From assembly GCA_010093815.1 (NCBI GenBank), contig ML996565.1: a stretch of DNA of 63,724 nt; one strand, given 5' to 3'. Made by a program: the position numbers and the translations under genes. Shown in pieces: positions 8,432 to 37,110 of this stretch. The stretch comes from Pseudovirgaria hyperparasitica (lineage: Eukaryota). A model generated the notes under the pieces. The model saw nothing but the letters and a program-made list of their open reading frames with translations, did no database searches and was not told where the DNA came from. Positions within the stretch are counted from its first letter, which is position 1. Each line of letters opens with the position of its first letter.

Positions 8432-8669
8432 TGTAAAGAGTAAAGACGTAGAATAGTAGTCTAACAGTTCATAGAGAGACATAGGAATATATTTATAGAG
8501 TAATCTTACTCTTATACGAGGTTGATTCCTAACGAGTAGAAATTAGTTTATACGGTCTACTTATATAGTAACCTTACTTAACTTAGCTGACTTAACCTAG
8601 CTCTAGCCACTACGTGGCTATATGGATTAGAATAGTCCATATAGGTCTATTATAGTTCCCGTCCTAATA
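8432..8669 (-). repeat. 3' LTR of element A
   Basis: Direct repeat of 27706-27943. A polypurine tract (GAAGAAGGATAT on the minus strand) lies next to it. Confidence 0.95.
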
Positions 8670-9148
8670 ATATCCTTCTTCTTTTTATGCTTCGCCCCGA
8701 AGTACTTAAGTATATATAATTCTAAGTCTCTATAATCTATCGTGTACCTATATATCCGTAACTAAGTTTCTATAACGTTATAACCATCCTTAATATAGGT
8801 AAACTCGAGATTCTAGTTTACTTTTACTAGTTTATGCACGCGCTTATCCCTTACTTCGTGGCTACTACCTAGGATATATAATTACTACTTTAGTTAAGTA
8901 TATATTTAGCTTCGCTCGCCTTTAATTTTATTCTCTAGTATATCTACCTCGCTCTTAAGGTAAGTCGTTAATTTATATACTATCTTCCCTAGTTTAGGTT
9001 TAGAAGGGTCTATAGTAGTCTATTCTTATTAGAACCGGTCCTATATAACCTATTCGCATTATTATAGTTACTAATTTAGCTTCGTTAATCGCCGTTAAGG
9101 GTAGACGAATATTCCTTCCTTAGATCTCTAGCTAATATATATATATAG

Positions 9149-10461
9149 ATATCTAATACTAGTCCTATCTCTAAGCCTACCTTCTTCTCTCGTAAGACTC
9201 GCTCTAAAGGTATCGCCTTCTCCCTAGCCACGCCGGCTAAGAAGCCCACCTATTACGGTAGTATAAAGGCGCGCTCTAAGTCGGAGAAGAGAGTAGCTAG
9301 GGCTACTACTACTACTGCCTCTACTACTAATATAGCTACTAGTCGCTCTAATCTAGGTAATTCTAGTACTAAACTTATGGATAAAGTGGTCGTAGGTTCT
9401 CCTCTCGCTCTAAAGCGTACGCCGTCTACTCTACCTTCTCTAGAGGATAAAGAAGATCTCGTTATAGATAATAATCGCGAGCCCTTACGCTTACCTACGC
9501 CGCCGTCTTACCGCTCTTCCTTCCGGTCTAATATAGACTGATTTAGTTACTCTAGGTCCTTTTAGGACCTTAATATTCGCTCTAAACCCTAGTCTACTAA
9601 TAATAAGGCCTAGGTCGCCGAGGATACTAAACGTAGTTACGGTTTACGCTATAGAAAAACGGCGAACTACGGTTTAATATACTATAAGTATATTAAGGGC
9701 TATACGGCCGGCTCTAAATATCTCTTTCGCTCTAACTCTAGTATTAGCTACTACTCTACTAACCGCGACGGGCCTATACGCCCTATCTTTACTCTACCTA
9801 CCCGCTACCGCCGCTATACCATAACTAGTAAGACTTATCTATAGGTGAGTATAATAGGCTATCTTAATCTAGTATAATCTAAAGTAGTCCGCGCTAATAC
9901 ATTCTTAGGTTCCTATGTATATATAAGATATATATAACGACCTTCGCGTCCGCGAGACCCTTAGGGGTCCTTATAGCCGCCTACCTACTATATAGAGGGA
10001 GTTTAGGGAGCGCTATAAGCTCTTCCTAGAGGTTATTAAAGTATAAGTTACGAGCACGTTAATTATTTTTAACATCTATTAATTTTTCTAGCCGCCGCGA
10101 GATCCCTAGCGCCTAGATAGTCTATTCTAGAGAGTCTATTCTAGCTATAGAGGCCGTAGAGAGGATTCGCTCTATCCCTCTCTATCTATCTCGCGCTACT
10201 AATAGATCTTATAAGAGGTCTACTATTTCTCCCTCTAAGTCGCCTCATAAGAGGGTATATATTCCCTTCTAGATTATTCTAGATCGTATTAGCTAACTTT
10301 AGACCTAGTCGCTACGCTCCGGCGCTTAAGGCTCTTCCCTCTAGGCTCTAACGGATTAGGTTATTACTCTAGAGGCTAAGGTCGTCGTCCTCCGCCGCTA
10401 TATCGTACGGTTAGAGAGAACTATACTAGAGGTTAGGATAGATAATAAGATAGAGGAGTAG
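9149..10461 (+). pseudogene. Antisense accessory gene of element A (basic N-terminus, Cys-rich motif, probable introns)
   Basis: Colinear homolog of the less-mutated 56198-57502 ORF in element D; the start ATG has become ATA. Confidence 0.6.
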
Positions 10462-13400
10462 CTCTATGGTTCTGGCTCTATGGGTTTGGCTCTATGCCTA
10501 GCTCTATATGTTAGCTCTATGCCTAGCTCTATATGTTCTAGATCTACTATAGGTGGTGCGCGCCGGCTCTATTTACCTAGCTTTTATCCGTTTTAGTTCT
10601 TTTTAGACCGTTTAGATACCCGTCGGCCAGTTTCTAGTAATTTAATTCTTAACTTAACGATATTATATATGCGCTCGCTTAGCTTATAACTATTAGTTTC
10701 TATATTCTAATTTTCCTTAAGTCACCTAAGTATAGGCACCGTATATAAATTAGTTTATCTCTATGAATTCTATTAGAGTACCCGAACTAGTAGCCTAGTA
10801 GTTATTGGTTCGGGTACTCTAACCTTTTATATTTCGTGTTAAGAGTTTAATTCTATAGTAGGGTACCTTTTTTTAGGTTCTTAGTCCTATGTTTTTCTCG
10901 TGTATAATGGTCTATGTTAGTCTATTCTAGACTCTTCTATATTATTCTATTATAGTATATCGCGTCGCGTTCCTAAAATAGTTATTTATACTTTCTTTGC
11001 GTCTAGTAACCGTGTAACGCTTAAATTATAGGGCTACTATATAGAGTTTTCCTAGTGCGCGTCTAGATTTCCTAGTTTAGTACTTCGTTCTCTACGGTAT
11101 CCTTCTTCTTTTTACGATAACCGCGATGTCGCTATACTTATATTAATAATATACTATTCTATATCTTTTACTTATACGTAGCCATTATAGAACTTAAGAT
11201 ATATACTACTGGTTTCTAGGTGTCCTCGTCCTTAGTATAGTCCTTCTAACGGATTCTATATTTCTAAATACTATCTTTATTAATTCTATATTCGATAATA
11301 TAGTCCACTTCGAATACGTCTAGTCTATCTTAGGGTATAATAGAGTGTAACTACACGTTCGTACGGCTATACACGTTAGGTCGAAATCTTTCGAGTAGTA
11401 AGACGTGGAACACGTTATAGATTCTTATATCACTTCCTAAGTCGAGCTCGTAGACTCTTATACTAATACGACGTTTAATTCGGAAGGGACTAGCCATTTT
11501 ATAATTAAGCTTCTTATTTACTCGCGATGTTCGTATGTTACAGACGTTAAGAAGGACCTTGTTACCCTCCTTATACGTCTAATCCTTAGCTAACCTATTA
11601 TAGTACTTCGTATATAAGTCGTTTACTTATTAGATTATAGCGCGATAGTTACGTACGGTTTCAAAGATTTTAATCACTAATTCCTAAGCGTAGACGTTCA
11701 CGTCTATTATTCAATTAAATTAGACCGTCTAAGACTTAAAACCTATCCTTAGACTACGTCCGAGGTTCGCCTAGAAAGGTATAATACCTATTATACTATA
11801 ACGACTATTATTATATATAAACTCTACTATGCTTAGTAGGGAGGCCTAGTCGTCCTACTCGAAATTATAGAATACGCGTAGGTAGGCCTTAAGCATCTAG
11901 TTCTATCGCTCTATCTAGCCATCCGTCTAAGAATAAAATACTATAGATATGTTTCTATTTATACTTACTATTTCGTAGAATAACGTCTAGAATTTAGACG
12001 TGAAGGTACTTCCTCGGTCTATAACGATCCTTTTTAGTATACTATAGACCTTAATAATCTCGTTCTAGAATACCTACGCTAGTTCTTTAGATATAATCGT
12101 CTTCTATACCGGGATATACCTAGATATCTTTATAAGTCTATCCACGATAATAAGAATAGAATTATAACTTATTCTAAGCATCTCGCTTAGAGGTAAGTTA
12201 ACTATAAAGTCTATAGTAATATCTTCCTACATAAAGAGGGGGACTAAAAGAGGCTATAAATTCCTATATAGCTTATGCCTAGGGGCCTTTGTTCTTTAAT
12301 AAATCGGATAAGTAGCTATCTATTCTTTAATATACTTAGATATATCTTTCTAAAAATAGTACTAACGAATTAAGCTTAGGGTACGTACATACCTAAAGTA
12401 TTCTACTAGGTTAGCGTTATGGTATCGGCTAACTACGTTAAATCGCGCGTTACCCGTCGGTATATAGTACTTTCTATTATAGTAAAGTAAGCCGTCTATA
12501 AAGGTCTACTTATAGTCTACTTTAGTCCGTAATAACCTATCTTACTATATTTTACGTAACTTTAAAACTATCGGATCTATCTTCTATAGATCCACGATTA
12601 ACTAGACGAGGTTAATTAGATATTTATGCTGGGCATTATCGCCCTTCCCGATAGCGCTAATAAACGGTCTACTAGGGACTTCGGTACCGCGTCTTTAGTT
12701 ACCGGCTTTGGTCTTAGAGATTTAATTACCGGTATTAACGTTAGTATCTCGCTAATCGCCTAATAACTTAAAATCTAACCTCATCCTTAAGAGTTAGGCC
12801 TATAGCTATTCTAGGACCCTATGGCTACTATAATCCTAGGCGCCTTCTTTATAGTTAGGTCTTCTTAATATTCTATTAGCTAGGTTTATACTTCTAGGTT
12901 AATAGTAGATTATAAAGTAAAAGTTTATAAGCTACTTAGCCTATCGGACCTATTAACGGTTTAAAACCGTTATACTTATAAACCCCTTTAAGTTATAGTA
13001 ATTAGTTAGTAACTCGACGTTATATATAGTATCTTTAAGATAATATCGCCACTATTTAAATAACTCTACTATTACTAGTAGCTCTTAGTTATAGATAGTA
13101 TATCTAGTCTTAATATCGACCATTTTATATAAGAAGAACGTAACTAGATACTATTAGACCTTTTTAGACTTAGTTAGTCTAGGCTAGAAGAGAATACCTA
13201 AGATTATAAATCCTAACGCGTTAGTTTTAACGTGGATAGGTTTAGTCGGGTCGAAGTATACTAGTAATAGGGTAGTTATAAATGCCTCTTTGATTTTCTC
13301 GAAGGAGGCCCTTTCGCCTTCCGATAATTCTATAGACTATAATTTAATATTACGCTATTTCTATCTACCGCGGACCGTAATAGACGAATCTATAGTAGTA

Positions 13401-15543
13401 GTACGCGCGTTAAGTGGTGCTACTAGCCGGGAGAAATACTTAACGAATTTTCGGTAGTAATTAGCGAATCCGATAAAGATACGTATATCTTAAACTAATT
13501 TTAGTTTAGGCTAGTCTATAATAGTAGCGACCCTATCCCTTTCTATGGTTATACCTTAATTAGTAATAACGAAGCTAAGGAAGTTAACGTGGTTCTAGTG
13601 GAACTCGTATTTAGATAGCTTAATATATAGCTTATGTTTTTCTAGTCTATCTAGGACTACGTATACGTGCTAGATGTGTTCTTCTTTATTATTAGAGAAG
13701 ATAAGAATATTATCAAGGTATACAATACACGTCATGTCAAGTAGACCTACTAGCACGTTATTAATATACGCTTAGAAGGTTCCTAGCGCGTTAGTTAGTC
13801 TAAAAGGGACTACTATATACTCGAAGTGTCTATAACGGGTCCTAAACGCCGTTTTCTACTTATCGCCCTTCTTAATATGTAGGCGGTAGTAGACGTCGTA
13901 TAGATCGAGCTTAGTAAAGATCTTTACGCGCCCTAGTCTACTAATAGACTCGGAGATAAGAGGTAGTAGGTAACGATTCTTTCGTGTAATATTATTCAGG
14001 CTACGGTAGTTAATACATAGATAGAGACTTCTATCCTTCTTCTTTATAAAGAGGATTAGAGCTCTAGCTAGAGATATACTAGGTCTAATCTATTCTCGCG
14101 TAAGGTTCTTTTCGATGTATTCTTAGAGGACCTATAGCTCGGGTTCTAATAGAGGGTAGATAGGTCCGTATAGAGGTTATTAACCGTCTTCGAGGTTAAT
14201 AGTAAGGTTAGTAGATTAGTATTAAGGTAATTCGGACGAGTCGATCGCTGACACGACATGTTAGTATATTTTATACTAATATAGTAGGTTTTTATCTACT
14301 TTAATACTAAGCTCTCTATTTTAAGTAAGTAAGAGGATGTAGATAGCGGAGATTACCTTTTCGTAGTTCTTCTAGAATTATTCGTCGTCGACTAGCTATA
14401 CTAGGTTCTATTATAGTAGGTATATACGCTAGCCAGCTATTTTCTAGATAAAGTCTAGTTTCGGGTTATATTTTTCGAGCTACGGCATACTAAGAATTAT
14501 AATAAAGGGACTATCTACCACGATAAAGGTTAAGTAGTAGAGTTTCTACTTCCCCCCGCTATCCTAGATACTATATTTAATAGTATAGATACCCTACGAT
14601 TTAATAGGACTATCGATACCATAGAAGGTAGTATCTATTAGTACTTAAATATCGACGTTAAGTTCTCGTACTCGTTAAGTTAATATAACGTTAGTAGCTA
14701 AACCGCTATCGAGCATTACGGTCTAATGTTATCCATAAGGGACCTTAATAGGCCTAGCCTATAGTTCGATATACTAGTTGGCTGGTTATCCCTCTATTTT
14801 AGTTATATCTATAAGTCGCGAGGGTTCCTTATAGGTAGTTAGTTTTTTATATCGTATACCGGGTAGTTAGGCGCGATATGTCCTAGCTACTAGCACTTAT
14901 AGTATGTAACTAACTTAGTATCTATATTAGTATTTAGTGGTTTCTCTAAGCGGTACTCGGGTGCTATATAGTCTATTCTACTATAGGTATAGTAGGTGAC
15001 TTTAGGTCGTTTATATAAGTCGTTTCTCGCGTCTCGATATATCGACTAGTAGAAAGATCTATAGTATAGGCCTTGTCTTCTCGAGTTCGTAGAGTAGTAG
15101 CGCCTATAAGGTGTTCCGCGCGATCTATTACTAAACCGATCCTCTTTAGACGATTTCGTATTAAATTAGATTAATAGAGATAGTCATGTATCTATACGAC
15201 GTTAGTTATTTATTATACGCTAATATTATTCTATGAGATTCGCGAGTACCTAAAGGTCGGTAGAGATAGATATTATAAGGTTAATACGTTCCTTTATACT
15301 CGGGTTAAGGAATCTTTTAAAGTCGTCGTATTATTAAACTATACGATCTTTCTTAGCTTCTCTCTAAAGAGGTCGGAGATATTTAAGGAGTTATAACGGG
15401 GATTATCTCTCTCGCTATTAAGTCTTAAAGATATAGCTCTAAGCCTATTCGCGTCGCTCGGCTCTATCGCTAAAGTATTAAAGAAGGAATTCGGTAAACG
15501 TGTCCTAGTTATACGCATCCTTAGGGTGTTTAATTTAATATAC

Positions 15544-15915
15544 TATGGAAGGCCGCTCCTGCAGCCCCACATGTATATGTCCCTAGCTCGATTACATGGC
15601 TTTATTGTATATTTAAGGAGGGTGTTTTCCTTGGTCATTCTACTCGGCGCGCTTCCCCCATCACTAATATTCGACTATTCGACCTTTCCTTACGTTTATG
15701 GGCCTCTATAGGTATTGATTATTAGGCTTAGCTATTAAAGAATTGATTAAGAGTATTATATAGACCCGTTCTATTATAAAAGAGAACTAATAAGAAGTCG
15801 TGCGTTCAAAGAGAACTTATAATACCTAGGAGAGATACTTGTGAGTTCGTCGCGACTACTATACTAGAAACATAGCTATTTATAAAAGGGACACACGTGG
15901 CAATAGCTTACCATA
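15544..15915 (+). repeat. 5' LTR of element B
   Basis: Direct repeat of 26611-26982. Confidence 0.95.
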
Positions 15916-16371
15916 ATTTTAGAGGTCGTACCTAGACTATAAACTTATAGAGGGAGATTAGGACTCCGAAACTAGCTTAGAGGAAGTATATGGCGTGCCT
16001 AATAAGATAGTCTAGACTTACTAGATCGAAGCCACGAGTCTAGAAAACAGGGAGTCCGGAGTCGCTAGGGGCTAGCCTCTTAAAAGTAGCTATAAAAAGT
16101 ATACGCATACTAACACGGGTGATAGCACGACTCAAAAATATCTTAGGGGAATAGAATATAAAATAGGGCCAGATAAAGTAGTAAAGAAGAGTTCAAAAAC
16201 GATAAATATAACCTATTTAGTACTACCATAGCTGTTATTTATAAACACGGCCACACGAGTATACTACTTTAGAAACGCCTTACACGAAGATAATAATATA
16301 AGTAGAATACCGTGAACCTTATATCGATAAAGACGATAGTAATAGTTTACCTTATAAAGGGATTAGTTAAC

Positions 16372-19300
16372 ATGGAGAAGGGATAATAGGTGTTATAGGT
16401 AGACGTATTAGGCTAACCTTTAGTTAAGGTAATCCCTTAACTAATAACCTTACCCCTAGCGTCTCTACTAGCACACCTACTACTAGTAATAGTGCGATAG
16501 GAGCTTAAAATAACAACCTAGTAACTCGTAGAGAGATGCTTAACTTCTTCGTAGTATTTACGCGATAAGGAAGGATAGTACCTCTATCTACCCTAGCCCC
16601 TAAGCGCTTTAAAGGAATAAATATTACGGCCTTCCTTCGGAAGTACGAGGACATATATATAAACTACGAAGTTCCGCCTAATAAGAAGATAACCTCCCTA
16701 CCGTTATACTACGAGGACTATCTCCGTCCTACTATTAAAGGAATAAGTAGGTTTTAGAAATAGTAGTAGGCCACGCTACGTGAAGAATTATTAAAGGAAT
16801 TCTCTCTATTTAACTCTACCCTCGAGGAAGGTACCATCCACTTTATCCGAAAATACGTGGAAATGGTTAAAGTAGACCCATTCTACTCTCTCCCTATATA
16901 CTACTCCTGGTATTATATTATTACGGAGAAACTTACGGCTAAAGGAAGCCTAAGCTCGTATTCGCGAATAGAGCTCTTTCTAGAAGGGCTATCTAATAGT
17001 CTTAAGGCTCGGGCTATAGAGAAATGTTAACTCACGATAGAAGCACATAGTTACGACTAGGTAATTATCTATGGCTTTATATTACGAAAGGCTAGAGCAC
17101 TTAAGAAACTAGCTCGTATTAATAAGTACTTAGCCGCACAAGAGCTAGCTATAGCCATATACTATAAATTAAAGATAGGGAGTAAGAAGACCGGCTTAGA
17201 AGAGTAGTTATATAAAGAAAGAAGAACTAATAAATTTAACCATCTCTCTCTAGTCGTAGTACACGTCGCGCTAGAATCGGATAAGTTTAACGAGATAGTA
17301 GAGAGATTTAGTAAACTAGACCTTACGTTAATTAAGATAAAGTCCTACTTTACCTCTAATCTCTTATTCCCATCCCTTAAGAAGTACGAACCTAAGCTAC
17401 TTTCGGCTATTATTAACTAGTAGACGCGAAGGCTAAATCTTTTAGTATATCTCTAAGTATAAGGCATGCCTATAGAACTAACGCAAGTTTATCCATAGAA
17501 TTATATATAGAATAGAGAATACGTCTCTACCCGAGACTCCTAAGGAGACGTTATAGCCTAGGATAGGCCTCGAAGACCGATTATATATATCACGTATAGA
17601 GGAGATTACCTAATATATAGATGTGTAGAGATAGTAGGATACATTAGAGACGAATTACTAAATATTAACGGGGTACGAGTGTTCCGAGGGCGTTTCAGGG
17701 CGAACGGAGAAGAAATCCCATTACTATCCTCCTTAGTAGGGCTATAAGCTACTCTATAAGCTATCCGGAACTACGTAGTAATGGTTTAAAACGGCCTAAG
17801 CTAGTACGGAGGAGGAGTAAAGGTTTCTACGTCTATAGTAAACATTAACGCTTTATAGGGAGTGCCGGTATATAGTATTAGTATAAAACCTATAAAGGGT
17901 CCCTACTAGGCCTCGGCGGATAGTAATTCGGAAGAAGAAGTCATGTCGCCCGAGAGTAAGAAAGATAGATATATAGAATTCCACGAACGCTTCGACGTGG
18001 CTAGTAATAGATATATCCGCGAGGAGATAGCCCTAGAAGAGCCCGCTATACTCGTAATATCTAGAAGAGGGATCACGAAGAGTACACCTAATTATACTAA
18101 GGAAAGAAAGATCGCCTATCTCTACGGAATGCGTGAAGGGTAGTACGTAAGGATTATTAAGGAATAGAAGGACGGTAAGAAGAGTAGCGACTAGAAAACG
18201 TCTAAATAAGAGCCAACGGCGCTAGAGGATAAGATAGATAAAGGGGATAGCCTAAATCCTAGTTAAAAGGCACGTATCTAAGGCGTTAAGCTTAATAACT
18301 ATCTATGCGAAGGATAGCGGCTAAGCATAGAAGCTAGCGAAGCATAGCTAGTACGCGTTCTAGGGATAACTATAAACATTACTATTAGCGAACTATTAAG
18401 TCTTAATAGCGACTTATGTCGTGCGGTATTTAAGAAGGGCGCCCCCGACTTTATAGCTAGAGAGGTCTATAAGACTTAAGAAGAGAGAGCCGAGAAGAAA
18501 GGAAGAAACGACTATATAATGGCTCCCGAGATAAATAAACTTAATATATTAGCACCCCTCTATGCCACGGGGACGGCCATTATATAATAAGATATTAATT
18601 AGCTTAAGGAAGGGATAGTAAGGCTAGTAGCCGAGTGTCTAAGGTACCCCGTGGAAGTTAGTCCTAAAAGAGCGACTAGTATAGTACTATTCGATAGTAG
18701 CGCATAGGTAAATAGTATTCGACTAGATGCTATAAGGCGTCTTAGGCTAGCGATATCTTCGCTTCTACTATATATAAAGAACTCGAGTTTAGTTAGCGCT
18801 ACTTAGTATAGTACTCCATTCGTGGGAATAGTATAGTAATACCCTATCCGCATAGGTCGGATCGTTACGGCTACTTCGATATTCGTATATAGCGAACTTA
18901 ATTATAACCTTATCCTAGGGGAGCTATATACTAGACAGGCCTTACTTACGGTGTAGAGGTTAGCCTCCGGGTAAGTACTCTTAATAGTCTACTCCGTATA
19001 TAGATAAGAACGTATAACCTTCGAAACTAGTCCGGACGAGTATATTCTAGTCTTAGAGAAGGAGAGTAACTCCGTGGCTAGAGACTAACTATATAGTAGA
19101 GTATATCGCCGGAAGCTAGAGTTAAGCCGGATTATTAGTTAAGGGCTACCCTTAACTAATAATCCGCACTAAATGGGGTCTAGTAAACCTACTAACGAAG
19201 GGGATAGGCTATATTTTTATACGGATATAGAAATAAGTTATATAGAGTTACTTTCCGAGAAAATCCGGCCTAAAAATATTACTTGGTTATCGAGAAAAGA

Positions 19301-22300
19301 TAACTTAGCCGCCCTAGTTACGGCGGTAAGGTACGCTACCTTCGTATATAAATAAGGCACGATAATAGAACGGCTTATAGTAGGCTCTACCGGCCTCTAA
19401 AGACGGTATTTATCCGGGGTATTAAAGGGATTTAGTATAGCCATCATATATAAAAGAAAGGGAGTTAAAGTACACCCCGTAGATAACTCCGAAGCCCACC
19501 AAAAGGTTTCTAGGAATCTATTAGAGTATCTAGACTAGCGTAAACGAGTAATCGCATAGTAGGCACTTCTTCTAGCCGTCCACCTAGGCCTTAACGCGTT
19601 TAATAGGCTAATAGAGTCTCGAAGGGTAACTATCCCGCTAGGAACACGTCTAACGCCTCTACGTATAAGTTAGCTAAAGATTAGAATAGAGCTACGTCCT
19701 ACGGAACTCAAGTTACTATATATAATCTTATTATATCGCGAGGAAGTACTAGCATGGAAATTCTTATACCTTAGTAAATTTAACGAAGAGGTAGTACCTC
19801 CGTAGGAGATCCGAACGGTAGAATATAAGATATAGTAGGCTAAGAACTTTAATATTCCTAGAGCCCTTTATAGAAAGGTACTTATAATTCTAAAAGAGCG
19901 TCTTAATAGCGGAAGGCTCGAGCCCTATAGTAGTCCTTATTAAAACGCCTATTTTCTCGTGGAAAAGAAGAAGGAAGCTAATAAGGAACGAGATTATAGG
20001 TTAATTAATTCGGCGATAGAAATCAACCGAGTTACCATTCGTGATGCGGCCACGCCGCCCTCGTGTAAAGAGTTCTCGGAGCACTTTACGGGGATAGCCG
20101 TCTTAATATTTACCAACTTCTTCTTAGAATACAATTAGATTCCATTAGTAGAGTATTACCGAGACTTAACGGGGTTTATAACGCCCCTAGAATTACTACG
20201 TAGGATAATATTACCTTAAGGGGCTACTAATTTAGTAGCTTAGTTTATTAGAATTATATTAACTATTATATAAGAATATATCCCGGAGAGGGCTCTGCCA
20301 TTCCTAGATAACTTAGACATTAAAGGACCTATAACGAAATATAACTCTAAGGAGGCCCTGCCTAGAATTCGTAGATATATCCTAGAACATTTAATTAACG
20401 TGGATAAGGTTCTCGTAGATATAGAGTGCGCCGGATACGCCCTAAGTAGCAAGAAGACTTAGTGGTATATTAAAGCCGCTAACGTTATAGAATACGTCTA
20501 CGACATTAAAGGGAGGCGACTAAGTAATAAAAAGGTTACTACTATTAGGGACTAGAAACCCTATAAAAACACGACGAATATACGAGCCTTCCTTAGCGTT
20601 TATATATATTTCTAGATATGGATCCCTAGGTACACTATTATCGTATCGCCGCTATTTATACTATTAAAGAATAAATCGGCCTAGTAGTAGATAGCTAAGG
20701 AGTAGACCTCGATGGACGCGCTAAAGATAGCTCTAACTACTACTCCCGCACTAATAACGTTATAGTATAGAATAGGTATAGAAGATATAATTCTAGTAGT
20801 AGACTCTAGTAACGTTAGGTAGGGAGCTACGTTAATATAGGAGAACGAGAATCGTAAATGTTAGCTATCGCGGTATAATAGAGGAATATAGTTAAAAGCT
20901 AAGAGAAACTACGACACCGTGAAGCTAGAGTACTAAGCCCTTCTCCACGCGTTATAGAAGTTCCGGTAATACCTCTATAGTATATACTTTATTATAGAAA
21001 TAGACACGAATACTCTAGTCGCTTAAATTAACTATACCGTAACTAACTTACTAGGGGCGCTTATTACTAGGTGGCTCGCGTGGATTTAGCTATAGAACTT
21101 TATAGTTAGGCACGTACCTAGGAAGCGTAACGTAGTCGCCGATGGTATCTTACGGATATACGAAGGAGAAGAACTACTAGACGTCTCTACCTTTAACCTA
21201 GACGAGTTCGTGGACATGGCTCTATATATAGACGTGCTAGAGACGTCGTTAATCAAGCCCGTTAGCGGGAGAGATTATATAATAGGGATACTTAACTATG
21301 CCGCTATTAAGTCTCCCTTAATAGATAAATATAGCGATAAATAGTAGAGGATTATGAAATACCTTACTATACTTAAGAGGCTAACCGACCTAACTAACCG
21401 AGCGTATAAGGCCTTTATAACCGACTATCTAAAGTTTCTTATGCGTGACCGAATACTCTAGTAGAGAGGAGATAGGCATCGCTAACATATACGAGTAATT
21501 AAGGATCCGAATACTAGGGCGCGTATAATTACTACCACTTATAATGAGATAGATTATAGAGGTAGCGAAGGGACCCTCGGAAGGATTAAGGATAAGTATT
21601 AGTAGATAGGTATATATAGAGACGTGCGATAGCATGTAAAAACCTATAACGAATATTAACGACGAAGTAAACTCCTCGAAGGTCTTAATAAAGGGCTCTA
21701 CCACGTTATAACGTCTATTCTTTAGTAAAGAATATACTTAGACGTAACGACGCTACCACCTTCTATAGGGTATAGTAAAGTGGTATCTATACGAGAATAG
21801 CTAAGCGGATAGACTAAGGCGGAGGCATGTACGGCGGCCACGTCTATAGTTATTATAAAGTTCCTCTTTAAGAACGTAATCTATAGATATAGAATCATTC
21901 CTAAAATTACCTATAATGGTAGTAGAGAAAATATAGGTGCCATAGAGGAGCTCCTCCGACTCTATAGAATTTATTAGAAGGTTACGTCTATATATAATCC
22001 CCGAGTAAATAGGATTATTAAGAGAAGTTTTATACTACTCGCTAATGCTCTCGCGAAGATAACTAATGGCGGATTTAAGAACTAGCCCGGCCACCTCCAT
22101 GCGGTCGTCTAGGTAGATAGAATAATAATACGTGCTAGTATAGGGTATAGTACCGTATACCTCGTGCTTAGCCATAAACCAATCATGCCTATCGAAGTCG
22201 AATTCGAGTTACTCTAAATGCTCCCTTAGGACGAGGTATAATCGACGTCCGACTTACTCGCTCTTCGAGCTAGATAACTTAAGAGAAGATCCGAGGATCT

Positions 22301-22790
22301 TAAGAAGGTCTATATCCACGTAATATAAACGCGTAAGGAATCGAGAGAGGCATAGAATAACGACCATTACCTTCGTTAAGAGTCGTTACTAGTTAATACG
22401 ATTGTCCTTCTATACGACTCGTAGCGATAGAAGGATATAGGGCGGAAGCTAAGGTAGTATTAGAGGGGGCTATATAGAATCTAGTCCATGTTTAATTATA
22501 CTTATAAGCTCGCGGAGCTTAATAGAGCCATGCTTAGAGGGACGTTTCCTAGCTATAGGTTAAAGAAATATTTTATAAGAAATATAAGTAACGAGAGTCA
22601 CGATAAGCCCTCGCGACCACCAATCGGAAGAATTACTAAGGAAAATAAGGAGAGTAGCGATAAGGAAAACTATTATAAATAACTTACGGAACACCTCGAC
22701 GACGCCACACGAACCCGGGTGGAAGTAGTAATTCCTACTCTATAAGACTTTAATAGAGAAGAATATTTACGTTTCCCTAGAATTAACATC
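16372..22790 (+). pseudogene. gag/protease/RT/RNase H/integrase of element B (RIP-degenerate)
   Basis: Protease-like LFDS[S/G]A*VN ~18690, RT ~19800-20600, RNase H ~20790-21150 (HVP[R/G]KRNVVADG), integrase ~21540-22500. Ends are approximate. Confidence 0.85.
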
Positions 22791-23478
22791 TTCTTCTAGG
22801 GGATAGAAGTTTTTTTAAGGAGGGAAGGGATACTTATAAAAGTAGTCTTATAACGATAAACTCTATCATCGAAAAAGGACGATAAACTCTATCATTAAAA
22901 GAGGATGATAAACCCTATTATTACTATAAAATAATAAAACTTATTATTAAAGTAAGTAATGCTCGAAAGAAGACATAATGGCGTTTACGCGAATTCCACC
23001 TACTATATATTAAAGCCGGTCGTGTAATCGAAGCCTACCTATCGAAGGCCTATTTCGTTACTATAGAACGGGCCCCGTTAGAAACTAATAAGGAAGAAAA
23101 GAAGGAGGAGGTATAGGAGAAAAAGATACTTATAGAAAGTCTCATAAGGATAAGAATATACCTAGTATCTATTCATTTATAGATTCCGCTATATACCCGG
23201 TAGATACATTTATTCATAGATTTCCTATATACCTAGTATATATTCATTCATAGATTCGACACGTATACGGGCCTACGGCCGTTAGTAAGAATCATTTATA
23301 AAAATCACCATATACCCGGCATTCGAGGAGGTATAAAAAGAGAACTTAAGATAGTATATAACTCTTCTCTCTTATACCTCTCTATACCTCCTTAATTAAT
23401 AAAACCTCCTCCTCTACTTCCGCCTCGCTTAACTACCTCTTCTTAGAATGTAACTCGCCGATAGAACCGATAATAATA

Positions 23479-26410
23479 ATAGCCCCGCCGAAAAAGAAAA
23501 CGTCTACCCATAAAGAGTTATAAGATCGTTAAGCACTAATAAGATAGACGCGGTCCTAGTTAAGAGTTATAAGTACTAAAGTAGGGCTATCGACGGCTAT
23601 CGTGGTATTAAGACCATCTACTACTCCGTACAGATAGGCTATAGAAGCTACGGAAGTAAATAAGTCTACCATTAACCGAATTATCGCTATCTAGGACCCG
23701 TAAGAGCGATAGGACTATATTCTAGACACGTTTAATAATCTCCTCTATATTACTAGCCTCATAGAATAGCTCTTAAGTAGTATAGTTAACCTCTTCTAGG
23801 AAGTAGGAGCCGTAATAGAGTATAGTAAGGTAAAGATTAACTCCTCTATTCCGAAAGAAGTCCACGAGATAATTCGTCGTGGAAGAGATACTAACTCCCG
23901 CATCCTAAAAGCTAAAAATATAATCCTATAAAACTAGCGAAAAGACCTCCCTAATAACGACGGCTAGTTACTCTAATCCGCCCTCGGATAGCTCTAGTAA
24001 ACATAGAACTTCATGGAAAAGCTAGTAGCGCTCTCACGAATACGGACATGGGCGAGAGCGAGGAACTAGTTAAACGTATCCCTATAGTCCCGAATCGGCC
24101 AGGGATAGAAGGGAAGAGGAATTAAGGCATATCTTTAGAGCTCTAATATTAATGCCGCTCTAGCTAGTAATAGTAATAAGGACGGTCTATCTCTCTAGTA
24201 ACTCTCGAACTACCCTAGCTAATAAAATAAACTAACGTTCTATAATAAGACGGGACTTATTATCCCCGCTAGTTAATAGTCACGGATAAGTAGAATAGTT
24301 TATAGGCCCGTCGAATACTACCTATAAATTAAAGAGATAAGTATATCGCCTCCGCCTTAGACCTTACCGTCGCTAAAACTAGCGTAGGTAATACCTACGG
24401 TAAAGTCCCCTCTACGAAGCACGCCTTCTAGTTTAGTAGTACGTCGTCTCTTCGAAGCTAGTCGTCCGTTCGAAGTAAGTATTCCTTCTACTACTACTAG
24501 TATACGTCCCTTACCGGGCCATACGAGAACCTCTTTAGTATCTATTATAGCTATACCGATAAAACCTACTCGCGGACGTGCCTTATCTACCGGCCCTTAG
24601 TAATTACCAGGGGCGCCTACATGATAATCCCCGGTTGTTCTTAGTTCGTACTCTAAGATAATAGCATTGGTCGAGGAAGAGAATAAGCCTAAGAAGTATT
24701 AATACGCGCCTTTAGTAACGAAGACTTTTAAGGTAGCTATATTATTAAAGAAGAATTTCACGAGCATTAAGGGAATGGCCCTACTAGTACGCTAGAAAGT
24801 GTAGATAGGTAATATAGCTATTCCGTATAAAGTCTACTATAAGTATTACTAAGACGTGGCTAGAAAGAATAATATACTCGTTAGCGTGTCCTACTTAAAC
24901 CTAGTAGCGAGACTTAAAATAGTATATAAGTTTAGAGATAACGTAGGGGCCCTTAAAGTTTATAAGGACCGCTATACCTAGTTCACGAAGTACACGCGGC
25001 CACCTTATCCAATAGAGGTATTAGGTATCTATCATTACTAGGCCCTAGAGACCCCGAAGCAAGTTATTAATATTAAAACCATCCTTACTAGTATCGTATT
25101 TATAATTTAGAAGGAGGACGGTAGAATAGATAGGTAACTCTTCGACGAGTAGGAACGTACTAGAAGTATTAATATTAAAGGGCTCTTTAAGCCACTTAAA
25201 AAGACGACCTCTATACTTAATAAGAGTATCCTAGAACTCGCGAGGGATGAATTTAATATATATAAGTACCACCAGCGCATGTTTAATAAGAAATTAAACT
25301 ACGGCTGGCTACGAACTACATACTACTCCTATATCTAATAGTTTATTAGGTAATATCTACTTTACTAGCTCACCTATATCGCTCTTCGGCCCGATCTTAA
25401 CTACTATCTAATCTCGTACTCGTACTATGCGAAGTCCTAGGATAGGGGCGATAAGACGGGTTTCAAGCATCTTAATAACGCCATTAATCAAATCCTCGAT
25501 CCTAGTGATAGACACGGGTTTAATATAATCTAGGGAAGTATTAGTCTCGACGACGAACGAAGTAACGACTATACTATAATCGTTCCCCGCTCCTATAAGT
25601 TCTTAAACGAATAGTAGTCGAAGGCTAAGCTCCGCGAGGGGGTCAATCGAAATAGTATAATCACGGCTATTAATGATAAGATCTATAATACGGACGATAA
25701 GAAACGATTTAGTCCCTTCGTCCTAGTCCCCTACTAGTCCCTTAAAGTACGTATCTCTAGCCCACTAATAATACACGGCGTCTAGGGTCCCGCAAAGGGT
25801 GGAAGACGTACGATACTTCCATGGTATATCACGATTGGCCCTAATTATATAATAATGGAAGTGCCTAAAATAGGTACATGGGAATAACTCGTAGTAGCTC
25901 ATAGGAATTTAACTCCGGGACCCACGTCTCCGTTAGGATTTTCTAATAAATATAGCGCGATTCCTTTTGCCTTCCTAGCCGTAGTTTAACTTCCGAGTTT
26001 TAACGCCGTTAGTAACGCATTAGTCGGCTATAAAAGATGGGATAGCTAGAAGGTAAAAGAAGAGGCAGCTGCGTAGCTTAACGCAAGTCCTTAACAACTT
26101 AAAGCCAAGGTAGACGCCTGGTTTAAGGAGGGCTCAAGGGTATTCATGGAGACCTTTAAGAAAATAGTAAGGTAGGAAAGGCTAGTCTATGGGGATAGGT
26201 CGTTCTAGAAGGAATTTAATAAGGCGCGCGCCGCCAAGCGGCCAATTAATTTTAAGAAATTCGAGTCTAACGCGGGCCTAGATAACGTTAAAGAGAACTT
26301 CTATAGATAGAAGAGGCCTAACGAACTATCCGATAAGGAGGAATCTAACCTCTCTAAGATAAGCGACACGATTCTTTAGAAGCTAGCTCGCGACCTTAAG
26401 TACTAAGATT
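23479..26410 (+). pseudogene. Retrotransposon-borne ~977-codon ORF with a C-terminal 2OG-Fe(II) dioxygenase (PhyH-like DSBH) domain
   Basis: One frame from an ATA (likely RIP'd ATG; APPKKK) in which the stops I checked are TAA/TAG. Motifs: TGFKHL[N/D] (H-x-D, 25468-25476), I[Q]GSISLDDE, IIVPRS[Y/H]K, VRISSPLIIHG (His 25774) and RRTILPW. Confidence 0.7.
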
Positions 26411-26610
26411 AGGCGCCTAAAAACCTACCTAATTATTAGTTAAGGGCTGCCCTTAACTAATAATCCGGGCTAAGGTTTACCCGCACCGAGAGGTTTACTA
26501 GGGGCGCATTTTATTTATATTAAGGTCTTTCTTTTAGGCGTTCTTCACACGGTTTCTCATACGGTTACTATACTACTAAGGGTAGTAGTTCTATAGGCCG
26601 GGGAGGTATA

Positions 26611-26982
26611 TATGGAAGGCCGCTCCTATAGCCCTACATATATATATCCCTAGCTCGATTACATAGCTTCATTATATATTTAAGGAGAGCGTTTTCCTTG
26701 GTCATTCTACTTGGCGCGCTTCCCCCATTACTAATATTCGACTATTCGACCTTTCCTTACGTTCATAGGCCTCTATAGGTATTAATTATTAGGCTTAGCT
26801 ATTAAAGAATTGATTAAGAGTATTATATAGACCCGTCCTATCGTAAAAGAGAACTAATAAGAAGTCGTACGTTTAAAGAGAACTCATAATACCTAGGAGA
26901 GATACTTATGAGTTCGTCGCGACTACTATACTAGGAATACAGCCATTTACAAAAGGGATATACGTAGCGATGGCTCACCATA
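26611..26982 (+). repeat. 3' LTR of element B
   Basis: Direct repeat of 15544-15915, preceded by the purine tract GGGGAGG. Confidence 0.95.
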
Positions 26983-27705
26983 ATACCATCTAACGTTTAG
27001 ATGGTATTAGGTCTAGGTAGTTCTATACAAACCTAATCTTATTACTATCGTTCGTGAATAGGTGGAAGAATCGGCTATACTAGTAAGCCTATTTATAAAA
27101 GCTCCTCCTGGTTTTACCGTCAAAGTAAGGTAGTTTCTTAGACTAAGGTAACTAGAATAGTAATAGACTTAGTTAGACTATTTCGGCTTAAGTTAGTCTA
27201 TATTAGTATAGGTTAGTTACTACTAGTACTAAAGCGCGTAGTACGGCTTCGAGTCTAGCGGTTCGTCCTTACACTTCGTTAAGTTTATAAAGTTACTACT
27301 TAAGCTAAGTCTAATACTATCTCTCCGCGTGTAGCTTAGTATATATATTATCGTAAGGCGTAGTTAACGTTAGTTAGTTCTAACGAATTAATTCGTTAAC
27401 GTTAATAGGGTCTAGTCTTATAGTAAGGATGGGTCTAGTATAGTATGAACTAGACCGCGATAGAGTATAATAGACTCCTTTCTTATTATCTAGGTAATCT
27501 TCCACGGTTATACGGAATACCGTACTAGTTATTAGTACGATAGCCTATAGGGTATACTTATCGGTAGAGGTGGTCGTAGGGAGACTATTCTCTTCGTTTA
27601 GATTTAGAGAGAGTCTCTCGTGTAAGGTAGTACCACGGGTATTATAGCGCGTAGTAGGAGCTATCTCTATAAGCTACCGTCGTGCTATATAGAGAGGAAT
27701 TAAAA

Positions 27706-27943
27706 TATAAAGAGTAAAGACGTGGGATAGTAGTCTAATAGTTCATAGAGAGACATAGGAATGTATTTATAGAGTAATCTTACTCTTATACGAGGTTGAT
27801 TCCTAACGAGTAGAAATCGGTTTATATGGTCTACTTATATAGTAACCTCGCTTAACTTAGCTAACTTAACCTAGCTCTGGCCACTACGTGGCTACATGGA
27901 TTAGAATGGTCCATTGTGGTCCATTGTGGTTCCCGTTCTAACA
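27706..27943 (-). repeat. 5' LTR of element A
   Basis: Direct repeat of 8432-8669, followed on the plus strand by TSD ATATA. Confidence 0.95.
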
Positions 27944-30249
27944 ATATACGTGTACCGGCTACTAAGTTTTCTTATATAACTATAGATACAAGGATACGGT
28001 TTAGCATGGTTTAAACTAGCGACCTTTAACTAAAATTAGCATCCGCTACACGCTAGTTAGTATTAACTATCGCGCGGTAAGCTAATATCTAATACCTTAG
28101 GGGTATAGTATATACGTTAACTTAAGTACCGCGGGCTATTATCGAGTTAAAAGTCCATTTCTAGATGCCTAGTTAATAGAGCCTATAGACAGACGCTAAG
28201 GAATCTCCCTAGAATAGCTTAAGCGCTATATTTTACATAGAATCTAAAAACTAAGTCTATGCGGATCTACCAAGACGAAGAAAATAGTAAATAGTTAATA
28301 TTTATACTATAAATAAGACACGCTAAGATAAATGTATATCTACTCTAGATCCTATAACAAAGGAGTAGTAGCCTACGATTAATTATCTCTAAGTATACTT
28401 ACTACTCGAGGAGTATTTAGATTATAGCTTCCAAACCCTATTAATATTTATTCTCCTAAGGAGCAAAGCTTAAGAGTAAGGAATTATATATAGTTAACTA
28501 CGCTCGAGGTAGTAGGTATTTATAAGAGCTAGAGAGAGAACATCGATAATCACCGTACTTATATTATAAGTAGCGAGATATCCGTTTATTAGCGTAGTTT
28601 AGATTCTAGAGCTAATTAACGGTAGTAATACTAAGTTACCCGTACCGTATCTAAACCTACTTAAGCTAGCTAGCGAGAGAAATAATAGGAGGGGGCAACT
28701 ACTAGACGTCTACATGTTACGTTAGACTTGTTAGTAGAGAGTAAGTATATCCACGCCCCCCTTACATTATACGAATAGTATAGAGGTGGTAGTAACCGGC
28801 GGATAGAGACTCTAGGGAGCTAGGTTAGAATTTTAACGCCATCTACTTTACTAACGGCATTGTTAACCATGTCTAACACGTATAAGTCTTAGGGCATTTT
28901 CAAATTCCTATACCGAAGGTAGCCGGTACTACGTCCTAGAAGGTCTCGAATATTAAGAAATATAAAGGATTCTAACCCATAAGAAAATTCTCGAGTAAAC
29001 CTATCCCTTGGCCGTACTAGAGCATTATTTAGTTATTTATATCTACTATTATCTAAAGTCTTATACCGCCGCATATCGAGGTTGAACCTTATAAGATACT
29101 ATGTTTAACCATGGTATAGATATAATAGCTTGTATACTTTAGTTAAGCGACTACATCTATTTCCCGTTTATACTCCTTATGAAAAGTAGAGCTCTATTAG
29201 CGGCCTAAGGATCCTAAATAAAGTATATAAACTTCCAACTAATCGCCATTATAAAAGATATTTATCTAGTAGTATAGGCTATCTAGAGTCGATTTACCGC
29301 CTTAATATGATTCTCGATTAATAACCCATTACGGACCTCGAGGTATACTAGCGATTATAGGAAAATAAAGGTCGTAGATAGCCCCCTAATCTTACCATAC
29401 TATATCTTTATAACTATACTTAGAACCTTTGTAATATATTATTATAATCTTAGCGTATATAGTAGTACTCTCTTCCTAGAAGTAAGGGTATAGTTCTATA
29501 ACGCCATGTATAACGTTTTACTATAGCGCCGGCCTATCTATATATTAGCTAGAATATTCGATAGGATTTCCGTTTAGGCTTACGCTACTATTTTTTAATC
29601 TACTAACAATTAGGAGCCGTTCTTTCGATATACAAAAGAACGTTACACGGGCCTAGGTAGTAACCATATACAACTCTTAGTAGAAAAACTAGATAGTCGA
29701 AAGATACCATAAGGTAGAGTCGAAAGGCAGCCCTTCCCATGCCTATATCCGAATAATTTTTATATATTAAGAAATCGCATGGTTAAAAGTTATATCTAGC
29801 TAACTTATAATTATTATTTTCACGGAGGGGGTAGCGAAGAATATACATGAAAACTACGTATTTTTCGTGATTTTTACTTTAATTTTCCTAACCGTGCGCG
29901 ATCGGTACCTAGATATACTATACACCGACCTACGTATACGTCTAAGGACCTTAGTAATCCTTATAGAATCGCGTACTCTAAGATACCTCTAGAATCGCCG
30001 ATTCTAATCTATTCTACTACTTACGAACTTTATAAGCTATAGCACCCCCCTTAGTACCGCTTCCTAATATAGATAGTATACGTTAAGTATAGGATATTAT
30101 ATTTAAACTTTTCTCTATCGGCGGGAGCGATAGAGCTTAAGCCGCCTTCTTCCGACCGTTATCGTTTCCTAGCCCGCTACTATTTATCGTACGATTACTA
30201 GAGGTAGCGGCTCGTTAGCTAAACGAGTAATAGATTCTAGCCTATTTAT

Positions 30250-34800: not shown

Positions 34801-37110
34801 TATTATACCCGAGTCTATAAAAGGCGAACCGTTTATATAGTTTATAAACTATATAAATAGCCTAGGTGTTAGGCACGTGCCTACTAGTTAATTATACATG
34901 TATATAGTAGTCGTATATAAGTAGTGTGCTCCACCCTTAAAGTAGTAGCTTTAAGATTCGGTCCTTTTGGTATAGTTGGTTGGTGCGTGGAGCCCGCCTC
35001 CTTATATAATCTTAAAGCTACTACGGGGTCACGGGTTCAACTCTCGGTCTAGTTAACCGTTATTGAATTTCGCACGATTCCGTTTAGCTTACCACGTTAC
35101 GTGTACTTTATGCATGTAACGGATAACATGGTAGTAACGTTACTACGGTAAGTTAGCGTGTCTAGTACTAGAGACGGCATTATAAGTATTGGTTATGTGT
35201 ACACATCGTTTATACTAGGCCCGTTACGGCTAGTTTAGTTCATCTTTTATAAGGTAGCATGCCCACGACGCGTAAGGACACGCGCCTTCGAAAAGGGGAG
35301 ATATTATTAGGCACGTGCCTGCTAGTTAATTATACATGTATATAGTAGTCGTATATAAGTAGTGTACTCCACCCTTGAAGTAGTAGCTTCAAGATTCGGT
35401 CCTTTTAGTATAGTTGGTTAGTACGTGGAGCCCGCCTCCTTATACTAGGACTACTCGACCGTGTAATTATTAATAAGTACTACTATATTATTAATAACGA
35501 CTAGTTCCGGCCGGCCTTTCGCGATATCTAAATAATAGTCGACCTAGAGGTATAGATTATACTTCTAAGTATAACCCTACTACCCGATAATAAAGTAGGG
35601 CTATAGAAAGCTATACGTATAAACGCTAGAGATGTATTTATCTACCGCGAAGCTATAACTCGGCCTAATATTACGTATATACTTAGGAGCCTATCTAAGA
35701 AGGCTCGAGGTACCTATAGTTAAGCGGAATACGTACGATGTGTTAGATAGGGTATTACCGGTAGATATCTCGTCTTTACGCCTATAGTTATATAAGCTAT
35801 TAGCCTCGTAGGGGAGCTTGGTTACGATATATACTATTAAGAGAGTATAGCTAAGGAGTAGGTCCTTAACGGATTTATCGCCGAAGAAGAAGGTATTATA
35901 GTTACTATAAACGCTCTTAGCCTAGGTATTAACCTAGCTACCATTCGCGTCGTGATACACTTAGGCGCTCCTTCTTTATTCCTAGACTATATATAAGAAA
36001 GCGGCTAGGCCGGTCGCGACCATCTAACGAGAAGCCTCGCTATCTTCGTAAAGATAGGAGAAGCTACTACTAAGGACGCGATAATACTTACTTATATAAA
36101 CTAGATAGGGTGTCGTAGGGTGTTCCTAGACGAGTATCTTAATAGGTCGTTTAGTAGAAAGAGCTGTAATAGGGTTAAAGAGAAGTGCGATATATACGAT
36201 CCTACCCTATTAATATTCCTACTATATTTAGAGACCCTCTAGGAGGATCTAGAATTGGCGATTCTAGACCTTTCTAGTAGCTCGCCCGTGGGTTCCTTAA
36301 ATAGTTAACCTAACCTACCCTAGACTAATTAACCGTCGCGCTAGCCGCCTTATATATAGAATAAGATAAAACGAGTACGTGTATATAGTAATAGTATAGG
36401 CGAGGTAGGAAGACTAGTAAAAGGGCGGGTATTAGAACTTCCTAGTGCGCGTCCGGACGAAGATTACGTAGGTAAGAATACTTATAATTAACGAATGTTT
36501 ATATAATAATAGTCCATGAAACTAGTAGTATAAGAACGTCGTCTATAAAATAGATAATATATAAGTCTCGTCTAGTTATTATCCGAGTAGAGATAATAGT
36601 AGGCTAGTTATTATAATATATATGGTACTAATAGTAGAGTCTATACTACGTACTACTTAGATAATAGACGACTTATAGACATGGTTAAGCGTGTACTAGC
36701 CGACTAAATGCGAAAGAGTAATATCATGCCTAAACACGTGTACTACTTTACCTATTACTAGCTATAAATTCTATGTCTATAGTAGGAGCCTAGACCGGAG
36801 GGATAACTAGGGTTCCGTCGGCTCCCGGGAAATATTAAGTATATATAGAAATTTAGTTTATATCGAGCTCTTAGTATAATAGTAGTCTATCTATCTAGAC
36901 GATAGGCTACCCGGTTAGAAGGGTTTAGAATTTCGAAAACGGGCTAACTACTAATAGTAATAAGAGAAGGTGCATGGGACTCTAGTAAATTAGCCCGTTA
37001 GCTATAGTGTAAGCGGCGAGAGGGGGCGTATAAAATTACGAATACTATTCTAGAATTTAATTAGAGTACTCTACTAATTATAGATGTTAGTCGATAGGGT
37101 CGGTAGAATT
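31860..37110 (+). pseudogene. DUF3505(OrsD-like)-RecQ-type helicase (telomere-linked-helicase-like), interrupted by TRIM 1
   Basis: De-RIP'd motifs: VIIC.DCKRAI..LDRHL..EH, EVNP[W]LER, RGLEILSIRY.N..RNI, KY[H]KG, [Q]A[G][H]S, VIIPLKAL, LDRVII[DECH], NAL[G]LGI[D]..IRVVIH and DYI[Q]ESG[R]AGRD (~35985-36020), plus a Cys-rich C-terminus. Confidence 0.8.
34867..35444 (+). mobile_element. TRIM (non-autonomous mini LTR element) copy 1, 578 bp
   Basis: 140-bp LTRs at 34867-35006 and 35305-35444, TSD CTAGG (34862-34866 / 35445-35449), PPT GAAAAGGGGAGA and no ORF. Confidence 0.93.

Follow-up and report, generated by a model that had tools for sequence, protein, structure and literature searches.

A RIP-inactivated Ty3/gypsy retrotransposon in a filamentous ascomycete carries a third gene from a family of predicted PhyH-type dioxygenases

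The window analyzed here is a 63,724-nucleotide stretch of contig ML996565.1 from the filamentous ascomycete Pseudovirgaria hyperparasitica (GCA_010093815.1), with a GC-rich left end followed by a long AT-rich remainder. It contains an 11.4-kb Ty3/gypsy retrotransposon, which we call element B, and positions 23479-26298 are the third gene of this element, inactivated by repeat-induced point mutation (RIP). We refer to this open reading frame (ORF) as ORF3 and to its product, together with its relatives in other fungi, as protein X. From left to right, the element consists of long terminal repeat (LTR), gag-protease (gag-PR), reverse transcriptase-RNaseH-integrase (RT-RNaseH-IN, or pol), spacer, X and LTR. 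An earlier note on this DNA had read the region between the integrase and the 3' LTR as a dioxygenase gene that is stably carried by the element, and the observations below bear out both the location and the carriage.

Element B is a bounded insertion with a target-site duplication, since its host, a second retroelement that we call element A, has another copy in the window (55467-63582) with no insertion at the corresponding site, where its sequence is ATGCCA. Alignment of both junctions to this empty site (62470-62570) places the left duplication, ATACTA, at 15540-15545 and the right one, ATACCA, at 26983-26988, where it overlaps the last 2 nucleotides (nt) of the LTR similarity. The two LTRs open with TG and lie on the plus strand at 15546-15917 (the final 2 nt may be flank) and 26613-26984, with a spacing of 11.07 kb. 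In blastn, the underlying direct repeat (15539-15917 versus 26607-26984) is 91% identical, and the LTR pair differs at 33 of 372 aligned positions, every one of them a transition. A purine-rich tract read from the sequence ahead of the 3' LTR (26600-26612, plus strand) is likely the polypurine tract. Element B carries the signature of RIP: the TpA/ApT index is 1.70 in the element and 0.69 in the GC-rich left end of the window, while the (CpA+TpG)/(ApC+GpT) index is 0.30 and 1.23, respectively, and the thresholds for both indices are those of established use.

The coding part of the element follows the Ty3/gypsy domain order of protease, reverse transcriptase, RNaseH and integrase, which we found both in element B and in the ORFs of L010, an intact relative from a metagenome contig whose pol is colinear with that of element B. 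A remnant of the aspartic protease, at the end of the gag-PR ORF, lies at 18354-18995 on the plus strand (tblastn with L010 ORF1 residues 826-1025, E 6e-11), and L010 ORF1 carries Pfam Asp_protease_2. The RIP-degraded pol follows on the same strand at 19428-22592 (tblastn with L010 pol residues 125-1155, 36% identity, E 1e-175), with 58 stops in 1055 codons; its frame matches Pfam RT_RNaseH at 3.6e-11 and Integrase_H2C2 weakly, and L010 pol matches RVT_1 (residues 332-472), RT_RNaseH (536-669) and Integrase_H2C2 (794-849). No Pfam rve core was reported at E ≤ 1e-5 when the domain order was checked in the L010 ORFs and the window. The stop-poor frame is that of coordinates with remainder 0 modulo 3 from about 16500 to 22500, and that with remainder 1 from about 24300. 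Between pol and ORF3 lies an AT-rich spacer (22593-23478, plus strand) that had no protein match in the Pfam scans.

ORF3 occupies a single plus-strand frame from 23479 to 26298, with 61 stops in 940 codons (39 TAG, 21 TAA and 1 TGA), and, judging by its letters, the ATA at 23479 may be a RIP-mutated ATG. When this frame was read through with X at every stop and searched with phmmer against 1.84 billion representative proteins, it found 647 homologues at E ≤ 0.001, of which 118 reach E ≤ 1e-30. The strongest match (E 4.7e-77) covers query residues 413-910, and one other aligns from residue 186. A family profile built from 25 full-length homologues matched only one of the six frames of 22600-26700, and profile positions 23-828 of 856 fell in one alignment to 23644-26223 (E 2.1e-128, envelope about 23590-26298), with no frameshift across its 2580 bases. 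The sense frame that the earlier note had described, in register from 23479 and broken by RIP-type stops, is therefore real, 60 of the 61 stops being TAA or TAG. Since a minus-strand frame is equally stop-poor at 24900-26400, stop counts alone could not settle the coding strand; we rejected a minus-strand gene there as an antisense shadow, as the profile gives the minus strand nothing. The similar stop densities of X (61/940) and pol (58/1055) indicate that the two genes degraded together, and the window copy of X is dead, like the rest of element B. No second copy of the ORF3 region was found within the window by blastn or tblastx.

The conserved domains of X can still be placed in this pseudogene. 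A helical N-terminal domain lies at 23644-24219 (plus strand; profile positions 23 to about 200, with a counterpart in the AlphaFold2 model of L010 X), and a PhyH-type Fe(II)/2-oxoglutarate dioxygenase domain, which aligns with the folded domain of L010 X, lies at 25153-26223 (plus strand). The His-x-Asp metal motif reads His-Leu-Asn at 25468-25476 (plus strand), and the alignment sets the window's F-K-H-L-N-N opposite F-R-H-I-D-x-N of the homologues. The Asn codon (25474-25476) is AAT after T, the expected RIP product of GAT, and the undamaged copies have Asp at this position. The distal metal-binding His (25774-25776, plus strand) falls in the invariant column H766, and ten residues later comes Arg-Arg (25804-25809, plus strand), which is invariant across the homologue alignment (R776, R777); the first Arg stands at the position of the 2-oxoglutarate-binding Arg, a spacing from the His that we take to be that of human PhyH. 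Both His residues, the Asn and the Arg pair thus lie exactly where the earlier note had put them. All 17 stops in the catalytic domain of the window copy are TAA or TAG, and 7 of them stand in columns where Gln or Trp is the commonest residue in the homologues, mostly with hardly an exception.

A scan of metagenome contigs with the X family alignment gave 80 loci, and we counted the catalytic quartet (His, Asp, His, Arg) in the 71 loci with at least 280 aligned residues together with the window. The quartet is intact in 53 of these 72 copies. The changes in the other 19 (H to Y, D to N, and R to Q, W or stop) are all of RIP type, and 18 of the 19 copies carry in-frame stops, the exception being L075. 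The X proteins are fungal (Pezizomycotina), 850-1200 amino acids (aa) long, and annotated as hypothetical or, rarely, as PhyH; the named members come, we presume, from Eurotiomycetes, Leotiomycetes, Xylonomycetes and lichen-forming fungi of several groups. Pfam PhyH (PF05721) matches 15 of 43 members at E ≤ 0.01, with a best E of 5.9e-10, and its gathering score of 22 bits is exceeded by the LTR-borne X of L050 (25.1), P0226 (28.2) and P0044 (34.9). Like PF05721 proteins, X is predicted to have the double-stranded beta-helix (DSBH) fold and combines His-x-Asp...His with an Arg about 10 residues past the distal His, but it differs from them by some 500 extra N-terminal residues of no known family. 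Neither PF07350 (DUF1479/Gig2-like) nor the TET/JBP, AlkB and JmjC families of Pfam matched at E ≤ 10 for 8 X members. A language-model atlas placed PhyH and Gig2-like clusters at 0.89, under its confidence line of 0.9.

The fold prediction agrees with this assignment. We modeled the C-terminal 352 residues of the intact, LTR-borne L010 X (L010:10261-11316, residues 542-893) with AlphaFold2 from a 43-row alignment, and obtained a DSBH of PhyH type with a mean predicted local distance difference test score (pLDDT) of 95.2 and a predicted template modeling score of 0.92; the model is that of the intact relative, not of the window copy. Foldseek found 230 matches in the PDB at E ≤ 0.001 (best E 5.8e-7), and those listed are all PhyH-clan 2-oxoglutarate oxygenases or DUF1479 proteins. 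The structural check that the earlier note had called for thus returned the expected fold. In VIA-align, the top matches are YbiU 4rgk (Z 19.4, root-mean-square deviation [rmsd] 2.9, 261 aligned residues), 7twe (Z 19.2) and Candida Gig2 6akz (Z 19.1), clearly above the remaining matches, of which the next, at Z 13-14, are ColD, GriE, EvdO1, SnoN, OkaE, EctD, FtmOx1, PrhA and KanJ. The YbiU/DUF1479/Gig2 group as a whole (4rgk, 7twe, 2csg, 2dbn, 6akz) matches the catalytic domain best, with Z 17-19.4 and rmsd 2.9-3.4 over 251-264 residues, at a sequence identity of 12-14%. On the other hand, those proteins are single-domain, about 400 aa long, bacterial or from yeast, and off mobile elements, and no defined substrate is given in the titles or abstract openings of the DUF1479 papers listed. 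No AlkB, TET or JmjC structure is among the Foldseek or VIA-align matches listed, although X may still be distantly related to them.

The N-terminal 505 residues of X form two domains in the AlphaFold2 model of the L010 protein: residues 5-210 are helical (pLDDT 75-98), 211-358 are a disordered linker, Ser/Pro-rich in the family, and 359-505 are compact (pLDDT about 90). The compact domain contains two invariant residues (C361, C407) and two that hardly vary (C363, H410), together a CxC...CxxH cluster that may be a zinc site. In the window, the residues of this cluster are Tyr, through changes of the TGT-to-TAT and CAT-to-TAT type, and the CxC itself reads YxY at 24697-24705 (plus strand). The motif APPKKK, which had been called similar to a nuclear localization signal (NLS), is present in the window, but the label is unsupported because the N-termini of the homologues are not conserved at that place.

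We then asked where X lies in other genomes. Context was called from Pfam matches of neighboring ORFs, tblastn with intact pol and gag-PR, and a pol profile, and the comparison was limited to the 28 of 80 loci with at least 4 kb upstream of the projected X start. In twelve of these 28, X is immediately preceded by a full gag-PR and RT-RNaseH-IN in the same orientation (L010, L011, L022, L043, L045, L050, L055, L064, L066, L068, L076, L077), and four have integrase remnants upstream (L020, L021 and L023, which are one sequence seen three times, and L026, weak at E 5e-4). In addition, the contigs of L042 and L049 have terminal overlaps and can be read as circular permutations of gag-pol-X, and the short contigs L037, L065 and L069 open with the C-terminus of integrase just ahead of X. 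LTR pairs enclose gag-pol-X in L010, L011, L022, L045, L055, L066, L076 and L077, with a spacing of 10.0-10.6 kb. Besides the window, the independent element lineages comprise the L010 group, L043/L049/L050, L042 and L022; the pol of the other lineages is 46-50% identical to that of L010, and X keeps one position and one orientation in every lineage. The X tree joins the window to L042 (SH-aLRT 96), a placement that is unsure because the window's branch is long, and the pol tree recovers the groups of the X tree with the same inner order. No fused pol-X protein was found among proteins of 1664-4750 aa, which is weak evidence.

Intact copies point to selection on X. When L010 is compared with L011, X has a ratio of nonsynonymous to synonymous substitution rates (dN/dS) of 0.071 at a dS of 0.33, while pol has 0.086 and gag 0.20, so the test that the earlier note had suggested gives purifying selection. 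Synonymous sites are saturated between L049 and L050 and between L043 and L049, and despite this saturation X ORFs of 1097-1240 codons are still open in the L043/L049/L050 lineage. The place of X between integrase and 3' LTR in at least four divergent lineages, together with a dN/dS of 0.07, therefore makes X a stably carried gene for a predicted accessory enzyme and not a one-off capture.

In the intact relatives, 359-858 nt separate the pol stop from the first ATG of X, and because of this gap X is likely expressed separately from pol; in live elements, it would be translated from its own ATG, 360-860 nt past the pol stop. RNA-library contigs that are 90-95% identical to L010 span pol through X into the LTR, for example one of 7988 nt in run X1 (L010 3963-11727) and one of 3825 nt in run X3 (7960-11771). 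This is a weak hint that relatives of L010 are transcribed, as such libraries may hold DNA and a contig with two genes is no proof of one transcript. The sequencing runs with matches each contain just 6-11% of the sampled words, and the uncovered parts of L010 are uninformative.

Taken together, sequence and models lead us to a probability of about 0.8 that X is a PhyH-type 2-oxoglutarate dioxygenase gene carried by the element, with intact relatives that are predicted to be catalytically competent. Several observations weigh against this. Pfam scans of the window frames, with stops read as X, gave nothing for ORF3, and many of its relatives likewise had no Pfam match. A PDB sequence search with the ORF3 frame gave a chance match only; the family profile reached only E 0.57 and 1.7 against PDB sequences. 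Most X members, including the window copy, fall under the PhyH threshold, and L010 X itself (17-19 bits) is below the gathering score, as are L049 X (12.2) and P0001. Foldseek found no known fold at E ≤ 0.001 for the N-terminal half of X (the 505-residue, two-domain model), and a wide VIA-align search gave a best match of Z 5.5 over 41 residues; for so large a model of two domains, this speaks neither way. Since a single element family, sampled in related material, accounts for 9 of the 12 loci with full pol, 7 of the 9 being full of stops, the independent X-bearing lineages number only about four, plus four known from remnants. Between L049 and L050, X is 41% identical and pol 77%, which means that parts of X evolve fast and that X is less constrained overall than pol in the L043/L049/L050 lineage. 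Finally, because the 12 other loci with enough flank have no pol upstream (L008, L009, L017, L029, L030, L031, L040, L047, L056, L057, L070, L075), the X family is not confined to LTR elements, and because the X tree is poorly resolved at depth, X may have been acquired more than once.

The pol-less loci are spread over several clades of the X tree, and members outside LTR elements had not been foreseen in the earlier note. It is possible, although we think it unlikely, that X is a host gene family that LTR elements captured several times, or that one old acquisition was followed by escapes or domestication; under repeated capture, the window gene would be one case among several. Pol-linked X genes occur in at least four clades interleaved with pol-less ones, the fewest label changes on the tree being 5, and some of the 12 loci without pol have ordinary-looking neighbors, such as the TPR and Sel1 proteins next to X in L008. 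However, the position and orientation of X are identical across element lineages, X and pol group alike within lineages, and four more clades (L020-23, L024-26, L037, L065) have pieces of integrase immediately before X, which fits decay of elements around X. The tree cannot settle the number of acquisitions because its backbone is weakly supported. We give next to no credence to a one-off event, in which a host gene was transduced into this single element or an unrelated gene became internal through nested insertions. The window does hold a single copy of the region, and element B is itself nested in another element, but the same architecture recurs inside LTR pairs in many independent contigs, X and pol have equal densities of RIP stops, and X is under purifying selection in intact elements.

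Some X genes adjoin genes of other mobile elements. Helitron Rep/PIF1 helicase genes lie beside X at L029:7610-10642, L031:11998-17121 and L040:1442-4159 (all on the minus strand), a Plavaka (KDZ-type) transposase lies near it at L047:1016-2281 (minus strand), and a DUF6589 protein at L030:13015-14523. In loci from two X clades, the adjoining genes encode homologous DEAD/ResIII helicases, 24-38% identical (L057:500-4921, L006:4884-6917 on the minus strand, L004:6629-8501, L005:3319-4176), and that of L057 also has an OrsD-like zinc finger; helicase and X may have been kept together as a gene pair, or they may belong to a different type of mobile element. One contig, L020, has three X-like genes (4938-8069, 9764-12721, and 21414-22628 on the minus strand), two of which are distant paralogues with 23-25% identity to L010 X, and the middle gene comes right after an integrase remnant (8588-9461).

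Other features of element B and its surroundings are as follows. A palindromic hairpin motif occurs three times on the plus strand: near the gag start with 3 mismatches (16420-16444), at the PR/pol junction with 18-nt arms that are 100% complementary (19128-19166), and directly after ORF3 with 16-nt arms that are 100% complementary (26432-26464). A pattern search of the window found these 3 matches, all within element B, where chance would give 0. In the intact relative L010, a hairpin with 21-nt arms lies in the spacer between pol and ORF3 (L010:8531-8573); RNA-library contigs break there, with loose ends piling up at 8525-8527 and 8574-8581, and one contig of only 79 nt is covered to very high depth. 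This may be a repeated motif or an abundant short RNA. ORF1 is unusually long (L010:1501-4677; 1014-1059 aa in intact relatives), and Pfam recognizes only its C-terminal protease, the gag part of about 850 aa having no family match. Element A is another RIP-degraded retroelement (8428-15545 and 26985-27947, with the second copy at 55467-63582), whose copies are 72-85% identical and have RT-like matches on the minus strand at 13412-14065 and 60391-61032. Further long direct repeats, at 34867-35604 and 49752-50329, are 14.4 kb apart, each with an internal duplication of 438 nt, and are probably the LTRs of another large element.

The closest known parallel is found in Phalaenopsis orchids, where Ty3/gypsy elements are reported to have an extra ORF for an AlkB-type N6-methyladenosine (m6A) RNA demethylase with demonstrated activity (PMC9289625). 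These orchid elements resemble the X elements in being large Ty3/gypsy elements with an additional Fe(II)/2-oxoglutarate dioxygenase ORF, but the enzyme is AlkB in one case and PhyH/DUF1479-like in the other, and the hosts belong to different kingdoms. The orchid acquisition is called recent there (PMC9289625), whereas X is common to lineages whose pol is only 46-50% identical, and the activity of the orchid protein is demonstrated, whereas that of X is predicted. In fungi, TET/JBP dioxygenase genes ride on DNA transposons of the KDZ group and on Helitrons, and a recent survey states that no fungal retrotransposon encodes a TET/JBP dioxygenase (PMC12730594). Like the X elements, the TET/JBP transposons are fungal mobile elements with a 2-oxoglutarate dioxygenase thought to serve the element, and some X relatives lie near Plavaka transposase or Helitron genes. 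On the other hand, X is not TET/JBP by Pfam or by the structural neighbors listed, and the X elements are LTR retrotransposons of Pezizomycotina. The available part of a survey of fungal LTR elements mentions no oxygenase (PMC3248453), and searches of the full text in PMC and bioRxiv gave no description of gene X in a fungal LTR element.

What X might do for the element can be approached from its architecture. By its predicted site, X would bind iron and 2-oxoglutarate and oxidize a substrate to the benefit of the element, and, because it has a long non-catalytic N-terminal part, we tentatively suggest, at slightly less than even odds, that its target is not a metabolite but something larger, such as a protein, RNA, DNA or chromatin. 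The nearest folds, which are enzymes without an assigned substrate or small-molecule enzymes, weigh against a macromolecular substrate. In line with the role put forward in the earlier note, X could be an enzyme of the nucleus that removes or oxidizes methyl marks on nucleic acids or chromatin, such as 5-methylcytosine, m6A or methyl-lysine, and would shield the element from silencing or RIP. There are precedents for transposon-borne 2-oxoglutarate oxygenases, in the orchid AlkB (PMC9289625) and the fungal TET/JBP enzymes (PMC12730594). X also has large non-catalytic domains and a Cys/His cluster, as do many chromatin enzymes, it has relatives beside Helitrons, Plavaka transposase and helicase genes, and its hosts use RIP, which acts on repeats. 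Nevertheless, we find this specific role doubtful: no AlkB, TET/JBP or JmjC protein is among the structures listed, the nearest being YbiU/DUF1479/Gig2 and PhyH-clan enzymes of small molecules, the homologues do not conserve the supposed NLS, and the window copy and 7 metagenome loci were mutated by RIP nonetheless.

Most PhyH-clan enzymes act on small molecules, and X could have been recruited to do the same if some metabolite or cofactor has an effect on the host cell or on the element. Among the structural neighbors, those at Z 13-14 hydroxylate amino acids, ectoine and secondary metabolites, and Pfam assigns PhyH. But the conserved 500-aa N-terminal extension, the disordered linker and the Cys/His cluster of X are unusual for metabolic PhyH enzymes, and the element contains no metabolic partner genes, so we consider a small-molecule substrate rather improbable. 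It is very improbable that X is a non-catalytic pseudo-enzyme, or a structural, env-like factor that kept the DSBH fold. A subunit of an RNA-editing complex with this fold is among the VIA-align neighbors (8fni chain 14, Z 13.4), but the quartet is intact in most copies, and the changes elsewhere are of RIP type and, in all but one copy, accompanied by stops.

Few extra enzymes are known to have become fixed in LTR retrotransposons, and such enzymes often give away the means by which a host combats the element, as the orchid AlkB did for control through m6A. In the present case, several old Gypsy lineages have maintained X under selection as their third gene, in fungi that use RIP, and a different dioxygenase would fill the niche that is without TET/JBP in fungal retrotransposons. 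With this, an uncharacterized and widespread fungal family of about 900 aa can now be given a predicted fold, a catalytic motif and a place in biology. What makes the dead window copy interesting is the X family that it revealed, and the intact copies L010, L011, L043, L049 and L050 are material for direct tests of substrate and transposition. It is conceivable, though we would not bet on it, that X is the founding example of a fungal retrotransposon-borne dioxygenase that oxidizes a mark carried by DNA, RNA or chromatin, or else a host defense protein, and so blunts genome defense, be it RIP, methylation, heterochromatin or RNA silencing. If so, X would be the ascomycete counterpart of TET/JBP on basidiomycete DNA transposons, and its family would be an enzyme associated with mobile elements in Pezizomycotina, with genes that reside in LTR elements or adjoin Helitrons, KDZ/Plavaka transposases and helicase genes.

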